From a virus: a stretch of DNA of 64,000 nucleotides. The notes below the pieces were generated by a model, which did no database searches, had not been told where the DNA came from, and saw nothing but the letters and a program-made list of their open reading frames with translations. The stretch covers positions 64,001 to 128,000 of the IMG/VR virus record IMGVR_UViG_3300008255_000099, one strand, 5' to 3'. Positions within the stretch are counted from its first letter, which is position 1; each line of letters begins with the position of its first letter. Positions 2,673 through 16,625 of the stretch are shown piece by piece. The position numbers were made by a program, and so were the translations under genes.

Positions 2673-2781
2673 GTTGCCCCGAGGGCAACTGGCCCTCGGG
2701 GCCAAAACCACTATATCTAGTGTTGGACCAAACGACCACAACAGGTTGTGGTTTGAGTGGGAAGACGCTCTAGATGTTGGG
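2673..2781 (+). ncRNA. GC-rich structured leader transcribed ahead of the first repeat
   Basis: 11-bp stem gccccgagggc/gccctcggggc (2676-2702), alternative stem gttgccc/gggcaac, hairpins cacta/tagtg and accacaa/ttgtggt. Confidence 0.45.
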
Positions 2782-3043
2782 GTTGGCTCTCTGCCCGCAG
2801 ATCTAGATCGTGTTTGACGGACAGGATGTCTTATCAGGAGGCGTTGGCTCTCTGCCCGCAGAGCTAGATCCCGCCTAGAGGCCAGCAAGGCCACAGGCAA
2901 AAGGTTGGCTCTCTGCCCGCAGAGCTAGATCGTTCGACACGAGGTTCGGCAACATCTGCGAGCAGTTGGCTCCCTGCCCCCGCAGGGCTAGATCACCGTG
3001 GTCTCGCAGCAATTCGTCGATGTCGAGGTTGGCTACTTGCCCC
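2782..3043 (+). CRISPR. CRISPR mini-array without cas genes: 4 full repeats plus 1 degenerate, 4 spacers of 33 bp
   Basis: Repeat GTTGGCTCTCTGCCCGCAGAGCTAGATC (28 bp) at 2782, 2843 and 2904, a 30-bp variant at 2965, and a truncated copy at 3028; unique spacers at 2810-2842, 2871-2903, 2932-2964 and 2995-3027; internal hairpin CTCTG/CAGAG; 61-bp period as in type I-E-like arrays. Confidence 0.92.
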
Positions 3044-3205
3044 AAACGGAGAATTAATAATAGAAAATAAATTAATCCAATTCGACGAAGAATTAGGTGT
3101 GTTTATTAATTAAATTTAATTTTTTAGAAATATACACAAAAAATGTGTAATTCCCCCACAATTTGTGAAAATTTGTTATATAATTGGTTTATGAGGTGAT
3201 GAATT

Positions 3206-3802
3206 ATGATTCAAAAATGTAAGAGATATAATTTGATGCTTGATGAAGAAGATCAAAATCTTCTAGCTGATGAATGCTCAAAAATGCAAACATCAGTTTC
3301 ATGTATGATTAGGAATTTGATTAAAGATTTTTTGAATGATTTTAAAAAGGAGGAAAAAATGGCTAATTTTAATATTGTTAGAAAAGACTTTGATTCATTA
3401 TTCGACAGAATATTTGATAATAGAATGTTTTCTTTGATAGGGGACGATGCCTTGAGTTCTTTTAATTCATTCCCTGTCGAGGTGAAAGACTGTGGGGAAT
3501 TTTTTGAAGTTTTAGCTGAGGTTCCAGGGGCAAAGAAAGAAGAGATTGATCTTTCAGTTGATAAAAATAATTTGTCAATAATTGTCAATAAATCATCTGT
3601 TGAAACAAAAGAAAATGAAAGAATCCTTTTCTCTGAACTTAGAACAAATTCAAGAATCAGCAGAACATTGCACCTCCCCCAACCCATCGACGAAAACAAA
3701 ATCCAAGCATCGTTGATTTCTGGGTTTTTAAAAATTGTTTTGCCAAAACTTGAAGAAATCCATCTGAAAAGAATAGAAATCAATGAGGTTGAGACAGAGT
3801 GA
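3206..3802 (+). CDS. RHH (CopG/Arc-like) domain fused to small heat-shock protein (Hsp20/alpha-crystallin); internal start at 3359
   Basis: C-terminal EVLAEVPGAKKEEIDLSVDKNNLSI...ISRTLHLPQPIDENKIQASLISGFLKIVLPK is Hsp20; N-terminal KRYNLMLDEEDQNLL...SVSCMIRNLIKDFL has the RHH pattern; GAGGTG RBS before 3206 and AAGGAGG before in-frame ATG 3359. Confidence 0.85.
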   Translation: MIQKCKRYNLMLDEEDQNLLADECSKMQTSVSCMIRNLIKDFLNDFKKEEKMANFNIVRKDFDSLFDRIFDNRMFSLIGDDALSSFNSFPVEVKDCGEFFEVLAEVPGAKKEEIDLSVDKNNLSIIVNKSSVETKENERILFSELRTNSRISRTLHLPQPIDENKIQASLISGFLKIVLPKLEEIHLKRIEINEVETE

Positions 3803-3807
3803 CTTCG

Positions 3808-3839
3808 AAAACTCCCCGGAGATTTCTCCGGGGAGTTTT
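3808..3839. terminator. Bidirectional intrinsic terminator between convergent genes
   Basis: aaaactccccggaga-tt-tctccggggagtttt. Confidence 0.85.
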
Positions 3840-3852
3840 TAATTAAATTCCC

Positions 3853-4806
3853 TCAATCTGCCATTGAAATAAGACCAATTTTTCTAGAATCACGCAAAAC
3901 CATACAAATTTCCTCACAAACAACCATAGCATATTCTTCAACCTCATTCGTTAAAGAAGTATTGCATGTCCATAATTCATTTCTGTCAATTTTGATATCA
4001 ATAAAACCTAATTGAGAAGATTTCGGCAAAACCAAAATCTTACGCTTTGGCATCAATGTGCTCTCAACAACATCGCCAAAATCTTTGAGCCTCTCACTAA
4101 ATTTAAATTCAGTATTAATTAAAAACTTGTCAACATTTCCACCATAACCCTCAATAGTTTCAGAAATTGTTTTGATAATCATATCAAGATCTTTTTCACA
4201 CGCATCCTCCCAACGATGATACTCAGGTTTTTTACCGTTTTTTGCAGCTAAATCTGTAAGAACAGAAGAATAAAGCAACACAATCACTTTCAAATCTTCT
4301 TGCTCATTCAAGCGATTGTTAGCCCTAAACCTTGCTAACTGTGAATAACAAAAACCATAATCTTTCTTCCAACGAGGATTCGTGGCTAAATGAAAATAAA
4401 CAGGTTCAAAAGATTTGTCCGAAGTTGGCCAAAATTTTGGCACGTTAGATGAAGAACAATATTGATAACTTGAAATAAAATCTTCCTCAATTAAACTCTT
4501 AAGATCTGTTTTTGTTGGAGATTTAAATTGAATTCTTTCAGTTTGATTTAAAAGAAGCCCATCCTCATAAACATCAAAAATCTTTCTTGCTAAATTTGGT
4601 GTTTGATCTTGAACTTTCTTTGCTTCTTTATCAGTTAATAAAAAACATCTAATTGAATTGCGAATCAATTGGCTAACTGGCACATCAAATTTTTCAGAAG
4701 ACTTTTTTAAATCATTAAGATAATTTTGCTCAATTCTAAAATTATATTGAACAAGCTCATCATCCTCAATCGCCTCAAAACCTTCAACATTTTCAGCTTC
4801 CGACAT
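3853..4806 (-). CDS. RHH domain fused to a diverged major-capsid-protein paralogue
   Basis: N-terminal VQYNFRIEQNYL...VPVSQLIRNSIRCFL (RHH). The remainder aligns by eye, in order, with MCP 6151-7005: FHLATNP/FEIACNP, RANNRLNEQEDLKV/RAKDSIQRQEDLEV, DVVESTLMPKRKILVL/DIHVSTMVPKNSIYVL, VVCEE/VIYEE. Confidence 0.78.
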   Translation of the reverse strand: MSEAENVEGFEAIEDDELVQYNFRIEQNYLNDLKKSSEKFDVPVSQLIRNSIRCFLLTDKEAKKVQDQTPNLARKIFDVYEDGLLLNQTERIQFKSPTKTDLKSLIEEDFISSYQYCSSSNVPKFWPTSDKSFEPVYFHLATNPRWKKDYGFCYSQLARFRANNRLNEQEDLKVIVLLYSSVLTDLAAKNGKKPEYHRWEDACEKDLDMIIKTISETIEGYGGNVDKFLINTEFKFSERLKDFGDVVESTLMPKRKILVLPKSSQLGFIDIKIDRNELWTCNTSLTNEVEEYAMVVCEEICMVLRDSRKIGLISMAD

Positions 4807-4852
4807 GATTAATCACCTCTTTCTTAAATCCAAACATAGATGAACACAAAGA

Positions 4853-4930
4853 TATAACCAGAGCTATAACCAAAGCTATAACTAAAACTATAACCAGAGC
4901 TATAACCAAAGCTATAACTAAATCTATACA
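4853..4930. repeat. Tandem array of six 12-bp units (2 x 36 bp), candidate operator or iteron array
   Basis: tataaccagagc tataaccaaagc tataactaaaac tataaccagagc tataaccaaagc tataactaaatc; intergenic, between the -10 box and the RBS of the RHH-capsid gene. Confidence 0.85.
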
Positions 4931-4935
4931 AGTGA

Positions 4936-4947
4936 ATTATACACCAA
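4936..4947 (-). promoter_or_regulatory. Sigma70-like -10 promoter of the RHH-capsid paralogue
   Basis: Minus strand TTGGTGTATAAT; an identical 12-mer occurs at 61688-61699 upstream of nrdJ. Confidence 0.6.
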
Positions 4948-4960
4948 TTGCAAAAAACAA

Positions 4961-4995
4961 ACAAAACCCACAAGGAAATTCCTTGTGGGTTTTGT
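4961..4995. terminator. Intrinsic terminator after the homing endonuclease gene
   Basis: acaaaacccacaagga-aat-tccttgtgggttttgt. Confidence 0.8.
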
Positions 4996-5002
4996 TTTTC
5001 AA

Positions 5003-5923
5003 TTATTCTTTATCTAATTCTTTATTTTCTGTGCCATCATCTATAAACTGTTGAATGTTATCAATAATTTCATTTGCCGAATTATTATTCTCAATATTTT
5101 TTGCTAAATCTTTTATTTGTGATAATAGTAAAAATGTTTTTTTATTAATCTTATTTTTAGTTTTAACATGTTTATTTTCTTTTATATCAAATTTATATTC
5201 CATACCCTCTGGTGCAATTAAATTAGGTGATAAAATTTTATAATCTTCTGATGGTATAAACAAAAACCAATGATCTAATGATTGTCTATATTTTTTTTCA
5301 AATGTAACACCAAATTTATCAGAAAAAAATTCACACATTAATGTATGTTCTTCTTCTGTAAAGCAATAAGTAGATATTCTACATCCTTGCCCATGCCTAC
5401 CACCATCATCTGATATTGCCATAGAAAGACCTAAATAATCAATCTTATTTAACCAATATTCAGTAACAACTTTTTTAGTAGAAGATTCATATATTTCATC
5501 ATAAATATTTTTCCAAATTTTATGATATGGAGTATATAATTCCGTTCGTAAACTATCGCCAGATTGCGTGTCATATAGTTTGGGATTCCATCTTTTTAAT
5601 AAATTTGCTTTAAATTCTAATAATGGTCTCTGAACTCTTGTGTGACATTCTCTATAATTATATTCAGTCCCCTTTTGAAGATTTATAGTTCCATCACCTA
5701 ATAAAGAACCATAAACAACTTGTTCTTCTTCATAATTTAATTCGGTTGGTAAATTAAATCTATAAACACTCTTCCTATCTCTTGATGGAAAATCTAAAGT
5801 TTGTAATTTACTTTTAAGAGATATCTTACTTCTACCAAGTTCGGTAGCTATATCTTCTAATGGCATACAATCATCCCACATTTCTCTAAATTTTTTCAAT
5901 TCTTCCTTTGTCCATTCAGCCAT
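5003..5923 (-). CDS. Free-standing two-motif LAGLIDADG homing endonuclease with N-terminal HTH
   Basis: VVYGSLLGDGTI and LGLSMAISDDGG motifs, RISTYCFTEEEH; N-terminal WTKEELKKFREMW...LEDIATELGRS is HTH-like; own TATAAT at 5964-5969 (minus strand). Confidence 0.85.
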   Translation of the reverse strand: MAEWTKEELKKFREMWDDCMPLEDIATELGRSKISLKSKLQTLDFPSRDRKSVYRFNLPTELNYEEEQVVYGSLLGDGTINLQKGTEYNYRECHTRVQRPLLEFKANLLKRWNPKLYDTQSGDSLRTELYTPYHKIWKNIYDEIYESSTKKVVTEYWLNKIDYLGLSMAISDDGGRHGQGCRISTYCFTEEEHTLMCEFFSDKFGVTFEKKYRQSLDHWFLFIPSEDYKILSPNLIAPEGMEYKFDIKENKHVKTKNKINKKTFLLLSQIKDLAKNIENNNSANEIIDNIQQFIDDGTENKELDKE

Positions 5924-6150: not shown

Positions 6151-7005
6151 CTATCCAATTACTATTTTAGCTGTTGCATAATCATTTATCACGGCAATTC
6201 CAAGCTCCTCGTAAATTACCCATCCTAGTCTTAATGCTTTTGGATCATCTGCTGGAAGAACGGTAATGTCCTGTCTTACCGGCATTGCTCCAACGAATTC
6301 ACCTGGGGCTAAAACATAGATTGAGTTTTTTGGAACCATTGTTGAAACGTGAATGTCTGCGGTCCATAAGTGTCCGTAAAGACCTGACATTAAAACATCT
6401 CTCTGAGTTGCCTCATCGAAAAAGTCTTTCCCCCATGCTCTCACGTCCTTATATCTAAATGGATGGCAAACAATTTTTGCACCGACAAGCTCGTGCTCTT
6501 CGATAAGAGCTAATGCGAGATTTATGTTGTCGGGTGAAAGGTTCCCCGAAACGGTTACTGTATGATCTGTTGATACAGCGACAGAGATTGCTTTGAAAAC
6601 TTCGAGGTCTTCTTGGCGTTGGATGCTGTCTTTTGCTCTCACTTGGGCACGATCTACGATGTAGTATCGTCTTGCTCTGATTTCATTCAACTTGATAGTT
6701 GGATTGCAGGCAATTTCAAAAGTGGGAACTAACAGTTCCTCTGCTTCTACCATCATATCAGGCACAGAACCACGTTTTGGAATAACGTAAGAAGTGACTG
6801 CGATATCTCTTTCATATCTTGGCAAAGCGCCTTGCGGCAGTTCGTCAACCATCAAAAGCTTGCGCCCGATGGCCTGATACTCAAGAGAAATCTTGATTGG
6901 TTCAACCATTGCTTGCGCCAGGGCAACACGGCCTTCGCCGGTTTCCAAAGCTTGTGCAATGATCTCTTCCTTTTGCTCATTGATATTTCTCTTGACAAGA
7001 CTCAT
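6151..7005 (-). CDS. Major capsid protein (HK97 fold)
   Basis: GRVALAQAMVEPIKISLEYQAIGRKLLMVDELPQGALPRYERD, FEIACNP, QEDLEVF and YEELGIAVIN resemble jumbo-phage MCPs; last gene of the protease-scaffold-decoration run; strong AGGAG RBS; followed by a terminator. Confidence 0.85.
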   Translation of the reverse strand: MSLVKRNINEQKEEIIAQALETGEGRVALAQAMVEPIKISLEYQAIGRKLLMVDELPQGALPRYERDIAVTSYVIPKRGSVPDMMVEAEELLVPTFEIACNPTIKLNEIRARRYYIVDRAQVRAKDSIQRQEDLEVFKAISVAVSTDHTVTVSGNLSPDNINLALALIEEHELVGAKIVCHPFRYKDVRAWGKDFFDEATQRDVLMSGLYGHLWTADIHVSTMVPKNSIYVLAPGEFVGAMPVRQDITVLPADDPKALRLGWVIYEELGIAVINDYATAKIVIG

Positions 7006-11075: not shown

Positions 11076-14000
11076 TTAATATAGAGCTATAATTTCACTG
11101 ATTACCTTACCGTCTTCAGCCTTAGTTTTAGCTACTGCAACATTAAAGCAAGAATTGCAATAGATTTTAGTTTTATCTTTTCCTGCAACTCTTCTTAATT
11201 TATGTCTTTCTCCACAATATGGGCAAACATGACCAACACTCATTGGTTTCCCTGGTTGGGTTTTTTCACCATAATTCATTGCTGTCTTGATAAAATCGTC
11301 AGGGTTTGTGACCCATGAGATTTTAACAGCAAGTGGATTCTCACCAGCTAAAACAGTTCGTCTTTCACTCTTAGCTAATCCTGGTAATGGTGCCCCGCCT
11401 GGGCCTCCGGCCCCTGGTAAACCACCGCCCATGCCACCGGCTGCTGCTCCTGGGGCTTGTGCGCCCATCTCTGCGCCTCCCGGCTCGGCTCCTGGGTTAA
11501 GTTCTTCTCCTAGCCCAAGGCCCTCTTCTGGGACTTCCTCTTCTGACATTGAATTTCCGCCAGATTCGAAGTTCTCTGGATTTATGATTTTAATATCGAA
11601 TGTATATTCAAATTCTGTTGAACATGAATTACATTGTCCATGACCTTCTGCTAAATCAACATCTGTTGATCCACAAGCAGGACAAATAGAGCCGGGTGGA
11701 GCAATTTCTCCTGGTGTGGGCAAAGATTCCTCTGGGGAAACTTGACCTTCTTCTCCCACTGGTTCACCGCCGCCACCACCTGTTATTGCTGATAAGCCAT
11801 CTCCACCTAATGCGCCTGCTGCCGGATCTGCGCCCGGACCAGCCGCCATCGGATCTCCTCCCATTGGTGCGGCACCTTGCATTGCTCCTGGCATTGCTTG
11901 TGCTGCTTTTAATAAATCTCTTCTAGAAGAGCTTCTCTTTTTTAACATTCCGTCAGAAAAGATATCAATTTTATTATCTGCAACTACACCAAGCGCAACG
12001 CCTTCTTCTGGTGCTGGATCACTTTGTAAAGTTCTTGTTATGCTACTTTTTATAACTCCACAAACATCACCATTTTCTGAGATGTTTAATTCTGTAAATG
12101 TCAGGCTATCTGGATCTGAAAGTTCATAGCCTCTATTGGCAAAAAGTTGAATAACGTATGGTTTAACTTTACTTTCTAATTCAGAATCATCTTTTCTACA
12201 ACCACATTCATTTAGATTAAAAGAAACTCTAAATTCTCTATCTGATCTATCTGTGATTGTGGCTGCGTTTTTAATAAAATTAATTTTTGCTTTTGTAGCA
12301 TCAGAAATTAATTTCTTTGATGTCGCTGGATACGCTGATAAGCATTCAACAGCCTTTGCGATTGTTGGACTTGAAATATCATTTTGATTAGCAACATCAG
12401 CGATATTTCCCACAAGATTCTCTATGACAGATTGTTTATCTGTTATTTCAGCGAGTTTTATATTCCAGAAAGAAGCTCTTTCTTTTATTGCAACACGCTT
12501 ATTTGTCGCATCTTCTGTCCTTGCAGATTCAATTTCTCTTGAGAGGTCTTCTGTTTTCAAAGAAGCAACAACTTCAAGAATGTCTTGGGCTGTGCTTTCG
12601 GTATCAAAAACAGTATCAGCAAGAGCAACAACACTATGCTTTAAGTGCTCACTACTAAGTTTTTCTTCTTTACCAGGATCAAGAGAGCCAACAAATGCTT
12701 TTTTAATATCATCTGTTCTATTACCCCTTTGAAGAATAGTATCTTTTGAGATATTGTTATCAACTATTAATTCTTTTGCTAATTTTTCAATAGTTTTTAC
12801 ATATTTATCTTTATCAATTGATGCAATTAACTTTATACCTTCTGAAAGATCTATTGGCATAACTTCTTCTGAAGCTACATCAGCTAAAGATCCAACAATA
12901 TAATCTTCTAAAGCTTTATCTGAAACAGAGGCAATCTTTTGGCCGATGGATCGGTTAAATGATTGTCTTTCTCTCCAATCTCGTCTTGCTTTTTTGAGAT
13001 TTGGAGTTGTATTCTCTGAAATCTTTTCATTTAAATCTTCAGTTGAAGATAATTTAATTGCAGATTCTATTATTTCCATTGGGCTTACAGCAGCATCCAC
13101 AATAGCTTTCGCAATTGCATTATTTAATGATGCTACAACTTCTTTTGCGGTTGATGAACCTGATCTTTTTGCTTCAAGTCTTTGCTCGTGAACAGTGTTG
13201 TCTGTGCCTCTCCTTGAATCTTCGAGTTTATGCTCTTGGACATCAACTTCAAATCCTTGTCTACCCAATTCACCTTTTGGGTTATATTTTTCAAGTCTTT
13301 GTTCGTGAACTGTATTGTCCACACCCGTTCTAGAATCTTCAAGTCTTTGTTCGTGGACTGTATTATCGACTTCTTTTCTAGCTTCTCCGACATAATTCTC
13401 TTCTGGATATACTGGATTACCTAATCTACCAGTGGGATATTCTTCGGTTTCATCTTGAAATCTAACTTCTGTTTGTCTTTTAGGGACTTCTGCTTCTCTT
13501 TTAGCAGTTTTTATTGTTCCTTCTTTTTCAGCCATTTTTAATTGACCTAGTAATTCGCCAGTAACAGAAGATATTTCACCCTCAGCAAGTCTTTCGAGTT
13601 GTTCGTCGCTAATGGATGGAGTCCATTCAATTTCTGAACCCTTGAAATACCCTTTTATTTCTCCACGAGAAGAGATAGCAACTTTGAAAGAGCCTTGCTC
13701 TTTCTCATACTTATCTACGATCTGATCAGTGTACTGATCTTTAATGATCTGAGATAGTTTTACGAAATTATCCATATCTTTCTTCTCCTTGTCTGAATAT
13801 TTATTTTTCATTTTCTTAAATATTTCAAAACCACCTATTTTAGTTTTATCCATATTTTTAGATGCTGACATTTGTAATCCAACATCACCAGCAGGAGCAT
13901 ATTCTTGTATTTGTGGTTGTGGTGGTGGTTGTTGACCATTTGTCATTCCTGCTTGATCAGGACTTTGTGTTAACCCGATTGGAATATTAGTTCCAAATGC

Positions 14001-16625
14001 TTCTGGTTTAAATCCATCATCAATTAGATTGCTAACAACCTCTTGAACACCAGCAAGATGTTTTGTTAAATCGCTAACATGCTCCATATTAACATTTCTT
14101 CTCTTACCTATAAGATCCACAACAGTTGCTTCAAGAATTTTTTGAGCTAAATCCATCTTATTTAGTTCATCCAATCTTTGCATTAATTCAAATACAGATT
14201 GTTTGGTTTGTGCTTGTTCATCTCCAGCAGATGGAACTGGAACATCGGGGGCCATTCCTTCAACTCCCGGTGCTGTGCTACCATCTGCTCTTGAACTAAC
14301 AGGCTCAATATTCATAAATTGATCTGCTGGACTTTCCAAATCGTTTGTTGATAATGCCTGATTATTAAAATCGGGGATTGGTTCCTGAGACGATTTGAGC
14401 ATTTTAGATTTTGAGTTAGCTATTTTTTTAATGTCATCATTAATATTTATTACATCAATAATTACATTCCTAATTTCATCAACATCATTTATTTCAGGAT
14501 CATATAAAGCTTCTCTCGCTAAATTATTAATTTTTTCAGAAGTTTTAGATATTACACCAATTTTTTGAAGAATTTCTTCTGTGGGAAGAATCTCCTCAAC
14601 CTCACAAGCTTCAAAAGCTCCATCTGAAACTGCTGAAAGCTCTATGAATTTAACTCCATAGTTAATCTCATAAACTGGTGCGTCTTGAAATTTTTTGCCA
14701 TTGACAACCCCTGAAAATTTTCTGCCCTTGTGCTCTTTAACATGGGTACAATACTGATCTTCACTTTTTGCTTGATGACCACAAATTGAGCATTTTGAGA
14801 AGTCTACCGAGCAATTTTTTGTAGCACAATTTTCAACTATATAACTATGGCTATCATTTTCTGTTTCAAAGTTATAAACTATTCCCTCATAGTCATCTAA
14901 TTCTATGTTAGAAATTTTTCTTAATAAATAGTTCTCTATATCTCTGAAATATTTTTTGTTAGAAAAATTACCAACAAATCCTGTATATTCTGATATTAAA
15001 GAACAATAAGTTGAGGGAATAGATATTGTATAAAAAATCCTTTTACGATTTTCACCACGAAAACTATTTGGATATTCTTTACTATCTGAATATCTTACAA
15101 ATTTTCCTTCTATTCCGCTTGAGATAGTGTGATAAATACCACAAGAGTTTAGCATAAAATGTAATTGTTCTGCTAATTCTCTTGAAACTGTTACTCCTTG
15201 AAGTGTATCAGGATCTTTTCTGTTAACAAGAATTCTTATACAACCATCTCCATTTAGCCAAGCACCTATAATATGTTTTTTAATTTCAGAATTTGCAAAT
15301 AATAATTCATTTTTAAGTTTTTTATCACAGGAATATCCACCACAATTTACATATAAAAATTCTATTACTTCTTTCGATGAGGTATAAACATCGAAAGTAT
15401 TTTTATCTAATTTTTCTCTGGTACTACAATCAACATTAAATTGATTTTTTATAATATCAATAACTTCTTGTGCTAATGTGTTTTTTTCATCTAGTGCAAA
15501 TGTGAATACTGCTTGTGAAAGTTTATCTTTATACTTTGTGTAAGAACCTTCAGCTAGAAAATATCCTATTAATCTTGCAAGATCATTATTTATGTCAGAT
15601 TCTACTTGTTCTATCTCTTTTGGAAATAATAGGAAATCTCCTGGTTTCAATAATCTAGATTCTTTTTCATCTATTTCTATTTTACCTTTTAAATTTCGTA
15701 TTAATTTTGTTTTTAAAATTTCTTCATCAGAATATTCTGATATAGAATTATAAACATTTTGATGATGTCCGACTTTAAATCTTTTTTCATATTTCGTTGA
15801 TGGTTGATTAGAAACATTTTGGTCTAACTCTTCGCCACATCCACATAAACAATATTCTTGAACTTTTAAAGTTGGGAACTTATGATTTGGTGTACATTTA
15901 ATTGTTTCACCACCTTCAAGTTCTATTTTTAAAGTATCACCAATATAATATCTTCTTTGTCTATTAGTAATTTTTGAAAATTTTCCATCACCATCGACAA
16001 GGATATCTTCTATTTCTATGTCTTCAACATTTTTATATCCATTAGATGTTAAAATTCTTGTTCCGGGTAAAAAACATCCCATTGAAACATCATGAATATA
16101 TCCTTCTTTAACTCCTCTTGCTAAAGAAGGATAAGCTTCTGAGTCAATATAGAAAGTGCAGTAAACACACTTATCTTTATCGTCCCATTCTGCAAAAACA
16201 ACTTTTCCTTTAGCTTCCTCAATATTATCATTCTTATGATTTGTATAAATTGGAACGCCTTCAAAGGTTTTGAAGGCAGGAATTTTCCCCTTTTTTGGTC
16301 CAGCATCTACTTCTTCAAGTAATTGTTCTTCTTTGAACATATCTCCGTTTTCATTTGGAACGTTTGCATCAATAGATCTTGCCCTAACCCATAAAAATGA
16401 ATTAGGTCTTTTTTGCATTTCGTCTATTACAGGGGTGCCTTCATATCTTTTGATTAATTCTTCAACATCAACTTCCACATTGTTAGATGTAGATGTTGAT
16501 TTTGATATTTTAATCATTTTATTCTTTGAAGAATCTTCTTCAATGACACATACCACCTGCAATGGAATATTAGGTCCACGCTTAACTAACACAGGAGCCT
16601 CCTTGATTTTTAAAAAACTAACCAT
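11076..16625 (-). CDS. Prohead (capsid maturation) protease polyprotein, intein-containing
   Basis: NENGDMF, PIYTNH (His) and IHDVSMG (Ser) fit HK97-type/SH-clan prohead proteases; long C-terminal extension with repeats and zinc ribbons. Confidence 0.8.
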   Translation of the reverse strand: MVSFLKIKEAPVLVKRGPNIPLQVVCVIEEDSSKNKMIKISKSTSTSNNVEVDVEELIKRYEGTPVIDEMQKRPNSFLWVRARSIDANVPNENGDMFKEEQLLEEVDAGPKKGKIPAFKTFEGVPIYTNHKNDNIEEAKGKVVFAEWDDKDKCVYCTFYIDSEAYPSLARGVKEGYIHDVSMGCFLPGTRILTSNGYKNVEDIEIEDILVDGDGKFSKITNRQRRYYIGDTLKIELEGGETIKCTPNHKFPTLKVQEYCLCGCGEELDQNVSNQPSTKYEKRFKVGHHQNVYNSISEYSDEEILKTKLIRNLKGKIEIDEKESRLLKPGDFLLFPKEIEQVESDINNDLARLIGYFLAEGSYTKYKDKLSQAVFTFALDEKNTLAQEVIDIIKNQFNVDCSTREKLDKNTFDVYTSSKEVIEFLYVNCGGYSCDKKLKNELLFANSEIKKHIIGAWLNGDGCIRILVNRKDPDTLQGVTVSRELAEQLHFMLNSCGIYHTISSGIEGKFVRYSDSKEYPNSFRGENRKRIFYTISIPSTYCSLISEYTGFVGNFSNKKYFRDIENYLLRKISNIELDDYEGIVYNFETENDSHSYIVENCATKNCSVDFSKCSICGHQAKSEDQYCTHVKEHKGRKFSGVVNGKKFQDAPVYEINYGVKFIELSAVSDGAFEACEVEEILPTEEILQKIGVISKTSEKINNLAREALYDPEINDVDEIRNVIIDVININDDIKKIANSKSKMLKSSQEPIPDFNNQALSTNDLESPADQFMNIEPVSSRADGSTAPGVEGMAPDVPVPSAGDEQAQTKQSVFELMQRLDELNKMDLAQKILEATVVDLIGKRRNVNMEHVSDLTKHLAGVQEVVSNLIDDGFKPEAFGTNIPIGLTQSPDQAGMTNGQQPPPQPQIQEYAPAGDVGLQMSASKNMDKTKIGGFEIFKKMKNKYSDKEKKDMDNFVKLSQIIKDQYTDQIVDKYEKEQGSFKVAISSRGEIKGYFKGSEIEWTPSISDEQLERLAEGEISSVTGELLGQLKMAEKEGTIKTAKREAEVPKRQTEVRFQDETEEYPTGRLGNPVYPEENYVGEARKEVDNTVHEQRLEDSRTGVDNTVHEQRLEKYNPKGELGRQGFEVDVQEHKLEDSRRGTDNTVHEQRLEAKRSGSSTAKEVVASLNNAIAKAIVDAAVSPMEIIESAIKLSSTEDLNEKISENTTPNLKKARRDWRERQSFNRSIGQKIASVSDKALEDYIVGSLADVASEEVMPIDLSEGIKLIASIDKDKYVKTIEKLAKELIVDNNISKDTILQRGNRTDDIKKAFVGSLDPGKEEKLSSEHLKHSVVALADTVFDTESTAQDILEVVASLKTEDLSREIESARTEDATNKRVAIKERASFWNIKLAEITDKQSVIENLVGNIADVANQNDISSPTIAKAVECLSAYPATSKKLISDATKAKINFIKNAATITDRSDREFRVSFNLNECGCRKDDSELESKVKPYVIQLFANRGYELSDPDSLTFTELNISENGDVCGVIKSSITRTLQSDPAPEEGVALGVVADNKIDIFSDGMLKKRSSSRRDLLKAAQAMPGAMQGAAPMGGDPMAAGPGADPAAGALGGDGLSAITGGGGGEPVGEEGQVSPEESLPTPGEIAPPGSICPACGSTDVDLAEGHGQCNSCSTEFEYTFDIKIINPENFESGGNSMSEEEVPEEGLGLGEELNPGAEPGGAEMGAQAPGAAAGGMGGGLPGAGGPGGAPLPGLAKSERRTVLAGENPLAVKISWVTNPDDFIKTAMNYGEKTQPGKPMSVGHVCPYCGERHKLRRVAGKDKTKIYCNSCFNVAVAKTKAEDGKVISEIIALY
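14814..16076 (-). mobile_element. Intein (421 aa) with LAGLIDADG endonuclease in the prohead protease
   Basis: SMG|CFLPGTRIL...VYNFETENDSHSYIVENCATKN|C; LIGYFLAEG and IIGAWLNGDG blocks. Confidence 0.92.

Follow-up and report, generated by a model that had tools for sequence, protein, structure and literature searches.

Capsid paralogues, re-used capsid homologues and autoregulatory ribbon-helix-helix (RHH) proteins are each well known, but a DNA-binding domain on a capsid fold is not. This work concerns a phage gene that joins the two. The gene lies at 3853-4806 on the minus strand of what we will call the window, the whole 64,000-nt stretch analysed here (positions 64,001 to 128,000 of the larger viral record IMGVR_UViG_3300008255_000099), and its product is 317 amino acids (aa) long. 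We consider it confirmed that this protein begins with an RHH domain and continues as a strongly diverged duplicate of the HK97-type major capsid protein (MCP) of the same phage. Each part is known, and their combination in one chain is new. The literature we searched on RHH proteins together with HK97, on jumbo-phage capsid paralogues and on exapted capsid proteins describes no RHH-HK97 fusion, in agreement with an earlier note on this DNA whose author knew of none.

Several described systems come close to this gene in one respect and differ from it in others. T4 gp24, the vertex protein and a paralogue of gp23, is likewise a second, strongly diverged HK97-fold capsid copy encoded near the head genes. 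However, gp24 is without a DNA-binding domain; it retains an N-terminal segment that is cleaved, belongs to the late head operon and is a regular component of the shell. In the window fusion an RHH domain stands in place of the N-terminal arm (N-arm), and the gene forms a separate transcription unit and is missing from most relatives. Encapsulins with an N-terminal cargo fusion, such as the Pyrococcus furiosus particle (2e0z), also put a foreign N-terminal domain on the HK97 fold. There the fused domain is an enzyme or a ferritin-like cargo and the shell is a cellular compartment, whereas here it is an RHH domain in a phage that has a normal MCP, and any shell made by the fusion is hypothetical. 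Ccm of SaPIbov5 and the capsid-forming proteins of phage-inducible chromosomal islands (PICIs; 7rwz, 9gyi) are MCP homologues as well, and they act on the capsid assembly of another element. These proteins belong to satellites and have no RHH domain, while the fusion belongs to the phage itself. The small regulators CopG, omega of pSM19035 and ParG share with the fusion a small N-terminal RHH domain and a short direct-repeat array by their own promoter. They are 45-80 residues long or carry short tails and they have no capsid fold, and the DNA binding of the window fusion is predicted. The parent family of the fusion's body is that of gp27 of Bacillus phage G (6wkk; Pfam Phage_capsid_4, PHROG 2522). 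Unlike this family, the fusion has no MCP residues 1-42 and keeps only 26 of the 108 near-invariant positions, and phage G has no such paralogue.

The phage of the window is a giant phage related to Bacillus phage G. Its record is 183 kb long with about 30% G+C and an estimated completeness of 58%. The MCP it encodes is 53% identical to gp27, the profile of the MCP family matches the solved capsid structure of gp27 (6wkk) at E 3.7e-134, and more than 1000 relatives of this MCP are found in metagenomes. Taken alone, the direct similarity between the 317-aa protein and this MCP is suggestive at the sequence level. BLASTP aligns residues 111-185 with MCP residues 70-147 (E 9e-5, 79 aa). A comparison by hhalign with a 22-sequence MCP alignment is collinear (113-311 against 72-279) at a probability of only 11.8% and E 0.0025. 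The hidden Markov model of the MCP scores the protein at 9.1 bits, which none of 5000 shuffles reached; among all 964 open reading frames of the genome its E is only 0.077, and one non-coding frame scores above it. The 317-aa protein gave no match to the phage G MCP.

The argument is carried by an intermediate. We compared the protein with a set of relatives made up of 80 loci around related MCP genes, which contain 13,176 open frames. One locus, L015, comes from the closest relative of the window phage (the MCPs are 86% identical), and its frame L015:15829-16821 encodes 330 aa with the same architecture as the window fusion. The earlier note had proposed a search for this architecture in related phages, and this is the one example found. 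It is the top match of the 317-aa query among all the frames (E 5e-5). The match survives when the RHH part is removed from the query (E 3.9e-5), and the matches that follow it are the MCPs of near relatives. The two proteins align over residues 17-304 at E 1e-7. The 330-aa protein in turn matches the window MCP by BLASTP at E 2e-26 and the MCP family by hhalign at 99.6% (E 3.5e-24, MCP positions 43-283), and its N-terminus is RHH-like (CopG_antitoxin 0.011, RHH_1 0.025). Because the intermediate matches both the 317-aa protein and the MCP family, the body of the 317-aa protein is a capsid-protein derivative. The idea of an RHH segment joined to a diverged MCP copy had been put forward from the letters of the window, and this intermediate and the concordant RHH matches bear it out. 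Most of the motifs that were claimed to be shared with the MCP are visible in the alignments (LATNP, A..RA, QEDL, ST..PK..VL....G and V..EE); the remaining one, IE......K, is not aligned by MAFFT and is doubtful.

It is important to realize how far the copy has moved from its parent. MCP residues 1-42 have no counterpart in the fusion, where the RHH domain and a linker take their place, and 0 of the 13 conserved N-arm positions are kept. The 330-aa protein keeps 37 of the 108 near-invariant MCP positions, compared with 26 in the 317-aa protein. The best-preserved region of the window protein is the part that corresponds to the E-loop and P-domain, where 12 of 28 conserved positions remain. Since the N-arm and most invariant residues are missing, we regard the protein as a derivative and not as a regular member of the MCP family. 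Two other identities were considered and rejected. A second exon or remnant of a split MCP is ruled out, as the MCP itself is complete and can be aligned with its family from one end to the other. A diverged Hsp20 with an insertion gives way to the far stronger MCP link through the intermediate, and the body has no Pfam HSP20 match at E<=1.

The evidence for the N-terminal domain comes from several weak but concordant lines, which agree on an RHH unit, a strand-helix-helix of about 45 residues. Pfam RHH_3 matches at E 0.013 with 15.9 bits against a cut-off of 21.6, CopG_antitoxin matches at E 0.13, and PHROG 876, annotated 'transcriptional repressor', matches at E 0.0013. When a profile of three related N-termini is compared with the PDB, the matches are AvtR (0.006), ORF56 (0.017), CopG (0.03), ParG (0.13) and Arc (0.93). 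In the ESM Atlas all named neighbours of residues 12-66 are RHH families, with template modelling scores by query of 0.71-0.83. AlphaFold2 run on the single sequence places a strand at 22-24 and helices at 27-40 and 44-49, at low confidence. The assignment of an RHH pattern to residues of about 18-56, made from the letters alone, is thus supported by the Pfam, PHROG, PDB-profile and Atlas lines. The strand presumed to read the DNA retains Q-x-N-x-R in the two capsid fusions. The convergent neighbour of the gene encodes a second fusion, of an RHH domain with Hsp20, and BLASTP between the two proteins gives E 1e-4 in a segment that starts in the RHH, with a second segment at E 0.13. Judged by sequence, the RHH domain of the Hsp20 fusion is a paralogue of that of the capsid fusion.

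Structure prediction of the body is consistent with this picture. Single-sequence AlphaFold2 of the 317-aa protein reached a predicted local distance difference test score (pLDDT) of 36 with an unusable body, and the body model in the ESM Atlas is likewise unusable at 0.43. A second model covered residues 70-317 and used an alignment of the two fusions with 29 MCPs. Its pLDDT is 50, with residues 133-185 and 245-317 at 52-77. Compared by VIA-align with 48,161 PDB representative chains, the top 50 matches of this model are all HK97-fold capsids or encapsulins with Z 6.1-8.2, and they include HK97, the Pyrococcus particle 2e0z (Z 8.2), phage G gp27, 7rwz and 9gyi; a Z below 8 may reflect merely a common arrangement. 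Foldseek with the same model returned nothing at E<=0.001, and its weak matches are nearly all of the HK97 fold. The expectation that the body would show an HK97 fold is favoured to the extent that such a model allows, with HK97-fold chains as the only ones among the top 50 matches.

How the fusion arose can be read from both of its members. The best score of the 330-aa protein, 94.6 bits, is with the MCP encoded in the same genome; near relatives reach 80-91 and distant MCPs <=70. Maximum-likelihood analysis groups the two fusions as sisters (99/97) inside the MCP clade of their own lineage (100/100). Their terminal branches measure about 10 and 9 changes per site, against 0-0.2 for MCPs, a difference of roughly 100 times, and the support for the pairing may be inflated by long-branch attraction. 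A single origin is supported independently by the junction DQ-x5-RKIF, which is common to both fusions where MCPs have R-K-L-L, and by 11 derived residues that both share in MCP columns which are otherwise near-invariant. Identity between the two fusions is 21-26%, compared with 86% for their MCPs. Most simply, the MCP gene was duplicated once, recently, in the common ancestor of the two phages, its N-arm was replaced by an RHH domain, and the copy then diverged very fast. That frames of 317 and 330 codons have stayed open despite saturating divergence, in DNA of about 30% G+C, argues for selection. We believe it is very probable that the 317-aa protein is a lineage-specific, fast-evolving MCP duplicate in which the N-arm (MCP 1-42) was swapped for an RHH domain, encoded as its own single-gene unit.

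The distribution of the fusion is narrow. The 317-aa protein occurs 100% identical on 14 contigs from several samples, which are metagenomes of groundwater type. No further homologue at E<=0.001 exists among 1.84 billion representative proteins beyond the 317-aa protein itself, and a word-based search of 5.8 billion proteins found only the query. With the 330-aa protein as query, a word-based search came back empty and missed even the MCPs that phmmer finds at 1e-26, which points to a sensitivity gap of the word filter for this query and carries no biological weight. Compared by tblastn with 50,697 phage records the 317-aa protein has no match, and in IMG/VR and the JGI metagenome contigs there are only identical copies of the 330-aa protein. 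The remaining 79 loci contain no further fusion in the ±10 kb around the MCP, nor do the contigs of the three next-closest MCPs examined, which are 89%, 83% and 82% identical to that of the window. A search of five related records over their full length with the 330-aa protein revealed none, and a search with the MCP-family profile found no such fusion in four genomes that are 98-100% complete or in the full phage G. Since the relatives searched hold no further member, we conclude that the fusion is an accessory gene of a narrow lineage. Gp28 of phage G was considered as an orthologue on account of the same post-MCP position and a similar length, and was rejected because it is unlike both the 317-aa protein and the MCP.

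The fusion gene is its own monocistronic unit between two terminators (Table 1). The upstream terminator, a strong one, overlaps the weak -35 box of the promoter-like site, which a consensus promoter scan did not list since its -35 matches at 3/6 positions. The proposal of a sigma70-type promoter stands as far as the TATAAT behind the terminator is concerned, and is weak in the -35. Tandem Repeats Finder reports the array downstream of the -10 box at period 12, and also as 2.1 copies of a period of 36, a duplicated triplet, with 97% matches. Four of the six exact copies of GTTATAGC in the 183-kb record are inside the array, and the record has no other cluster of them. CopG, omega, ParG and other RHH regulators are known to occupy tandem repeats beside the promoters of their own genes, and by analogy the array is likely to be the operator of the RHH domain, for which we regard it as the candidate. 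The promoter of the RHH-Hsp20 gene has different inverted repeats, ACACA-N5-TGTGT and CACAA-N-TTGTG. Both RHH fusion genes of the window thus have promoter-proximal repeats. The upstream region of the 330-aa gene of L015 is only 50 bp long and contains a TATAAT together with two half sites of the TATA(G/C) type.

Table 1. Coordinates of the fusion gene, its parts, its control signals and its neighbours in the window.
Feature	Position	Strand	Details
Fusion gene, RHH + capsid-like body, 317 aa	3853..4806	(-)	From the list of open reading frames; stop codon 3853-3855
RHH domain, residues ~17-57	4636..4758	(-)	Strand Q-x-N-x-R, then two helices
Capsid-derived body, residues 70-317	3856..4599	(-)	Corresponds to about MCP residues 43-284 (E-loop, P-domain, A-domain)
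Ribosome-binding site GAGGTG	4814..4819	(-)	7 nt before ATG
Tandem repeats	4847..4928	(-)	6.8 copies of 12-bp (R)GTTATAGCT(Y)T, between -10 box and ribosome-binding site
Promoter-like site	4936..4964	(-)	TTGTTT 4959-4964, 17-nt spacer, TATAAT 4936-4941
Intrinsic terminator	4959..4997	(-)	18-pair stem + T run; ends the endonuclease transcript just upstream
GC-rich hairpin with A run and T run flanks	3808..3840	(.)	Bidirectional terminator shared with the convergent RHH-Hsp20 gene
Convergent neighbour, RHH + Hsp20 fusion	3206..3802	(+)	Pfam HSP20 6e-14; N-terminal ParG/RHH_9
LAGLIDADG homing endonuclease gene	5003..5923	(-)	Between MCP and fusion gene; Pfam LAGLIDADG_2 4.9e-19
MCP, parent gene	6151..7005	(-)	284 aa; PHROG 2522 at 7e-68; HK97-type

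What the protein does must be argued from these features. The reading we prefer, at a probability of roughly 0.4 to 0.45, is that it is an autoregulated accessory protein that associates with capsid proteins and whose regulation may be coupled to assembly. The RHH domains of two chains would pair and bind the 12-bp array between the -10 box and the ribosome-binding site, and protein bound there would repress its own transcription. We infer the autorepression from the known behaviour of RHH regulators (CopG, omega, ParG). The capsid-derived body, in which E-loop and P-domain features are kept, would associate with capsid-protein assemblies or with itself. A place for the body in protein assemblies is suggested by the better preservation of these two parts and by the parallel RHH-Hsp20 fusion. 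Protein drawn into assemblies would leave the operator, so that repression would be relieved and synthesis would follow demand. The RHH-Hsp20 neighbour, with its paralogous RHH domain and its own promoter-proximal repeats, may apply the same logic to a chaperone. Feedback by sequestration of a similar kind operates for the P22 scaffolding protein and in chaperone titration. If the protein does enter the shell, its N-terminal domain would face the lumen, where the DNA is, as the N-terminal domain does in the HK97 fold generally (the HK97 delta domain, the Pyrococcus encapsulin). A bolder version makes the duplicated shell protein a sequence-specific DNA binder, serving as a lumen anchor that holds a defined site of the genome to the inner wall of the capsid, or as an assembly sensor in a single chain that feeds back on transcription. 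With the RHH-Hsp20 neighbour, it would suggest that coupling an autoregulatory RHH domain to cage-forming proteins is a reusable design in this phage. This version is one we would rather doubt.

A number of our own results weigh against the assembly-coupled regulator and should be stated together. The family has two members, both from uncultivated phages. All sequence matches of the RHH domain are below curated thresholds. The model of the body is of low confidence, and since its alignment contained MCPs, the fold result is consistent with homology and is no independent proof of it. In the A-domain part the 317-aa protein keeps 1 of 20 conserved positions and the 330-aa protein keeps 4. With 26 of 108 MCP invariants left and an A-domain part that cannot be recognised, co-assembly with the MCP lattice is uncertain. 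The 12-bp array is absent upstream of the 330-aa gene in L015, so conservation of the operator is unsupported.

Other explanations account for parts of the same evidence. The protein could be a minor structural subunit at special positions of the shell, as T4 gp24 does at the vertices of the gp23 lattice, with a lumen-side RHH domain that holds packaged DNA to the inner wall, possibly through the 12-bp array. The gene does lie in the head-gene region and derives from the MCP, the E-loop and P-domain are its best-kept part (12/28), T4 gp23 and gp24 have diverged about as far from each other as these proteins have from the MCP, and N-terminal fusions to the HK97 fold are known to face the lumen. 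This is nevertheless unlikely. The gene is absent near the MCP (10 kb) in close relatives (MCP 83-89%) and from five complete phage-G-like genomes, which means it is no required part of the shell. Most lattice-invariant residues are lost, transcription is separate from the head operon, and at five-fold positions the RHH domains could not all pair. At the other extreme the protein could be purely a regulator, in which the capsid fold has lost its link to capsids and is only an oligomerisation platform for an RHH domain that controls its own gene and perhaps others in the 42% of the genome which the record does not cover. It would then be expected that most MCP invariants are gone, especially in the A-domain, and that the gene has a promoter of its own with an operator-like array, and in a record that is 58% complete other sites could exist. 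Yet there is no second repeat cluster in 183 kb, a 250-residue shell fold is a costly module for oligomerisation, and the best-kept parts are those which make the contacts between subunits in HK97-type shells. We consider a pure regulator quite improbable.

A weapon between phages deserves about as little credence. Here a decoy subunit would enter or cap the capsomers of co-infecting relatives, and the RHH domain would serve dimerisation or self-control. Branches of about 10 against about 0.1 for MCPs, together with patchy presence, fit a gene in conflict, and it adjoins homing endonucleases of the kind that flank the MCP in several relatives. A precedent exists in SaPIbov5 Ccm, an MCP homologue that redirects the capsid of another element, and the Ccm procapsid is among the fold matches. 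A poison subunit, however, should retain the interface residues of its target, and three quarters of the invariant positions are gone. It would also endanger the phage's own capsid, and the need for a DNA-binding domain is left unexplained. The extreme sequence divergence could finally be that of a decaying relic: recombination driven by an endonuclease would have produced a copy of part of the MCP gene, which fused accidentally with an RHH gene and is now being lost. Homing endonucleases do adjoin the MCP, and a complete relative (G006) has other short MCP-derived frames. This we find very hard to believe, because the frames of 317 and 330 codons are open in both lineages in AT-rich DNA that is rich in stop codons; the expression signals (promoter, ribosome-binding site, terminators) are undamaged; 14 contigs from several samples encode the protein without any difference; and the junction and derived residues are common to both lineages.

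The choice between these readings matters. Should the protein be built into the shell, nature would provide an example of a capsid subunit able to recognise a DNA site on the inner side. Such a subunit would bear on how giant phages organise or anchor genomes of half a megabase, and it would be of interest for engineered nanocages that load DNA. If the assembly-coupled regulator is right, head assembly and gene expression would be linked by a compact feedback. Either way the locus is a clear and datable case in which the most conserved phage gene, beside homing endonucleases, was duplicated, had a domain replaced and diverged very fast.

The surroundings of the gene are those of a head region. 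The order on the minus strand is a gene for a protease-like protein of 1849 aa, then genes for proteins of 365 aa, 696 aa (scaffold-like) and 220 aa, the MCP, the LAGLIDADG endonuclease and the 317-aa fusion. LAGLIDADG genes also lie directly downstream of the MCP in at least two close relatives, L015 (10969-13162, two copies) and L104 (4167-5297). The complete phage-G-like genome G006 (476 kb) has two other short MCP-derived frames far from its true MCP. One, L114:1005-1697 (-), is a 230-aa 'mini-MCP' with a hydrophobic N-terminus, which keeps the E-loop region and the C-terminal ADDP...GYEE and is missing the middle. The other, L115:1089-1502 (+), is a 137-aa frame with only MCP residues of about 4-79. 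Such frames, and the endonucleases that follow the MCP, make the capsid gene region seem prone to duplication and insertion.

Some smaller observations concern the neighbours. The endonuclease of the window (5003-5923) also has a GcrA/D5-like DNA-binding segment at its N-terminus. In L015 two adjacent genes of about 250 aa (13163-14651, +) lie between the endonucleases and the 330-aa gene, both of which weakly resemble the C-terminal domain of lysyl-phosphatidylglycerol synthase, and a SNF2-type helicase gene comes after the fusion gene. Near the RHH-Hsp20 gene, a GC-rich island at 2770-3045 (+), with a GC-rich flank at 2590-2770, sits inside the AT-rich phage DNA. It contains 4-5 direct repeats of about 28 bp (GTTGGCTCTCTGCCCGCAGAGCTAGATC) with unique spacers of about 33 bp, which resemble a phage-borne CRISPR mini-array; there is no cas gene nearby. 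The 1849-aa protein (11076-16625, -) has an N-terminal region like a head maturation protease (PHROG 18299, 3e-11), and its sequence is apparently broken by an intein-like insertion. Its counterpart in the relative L107 is 1696 aa long and has Pfam hints of a Hint/intein domain.

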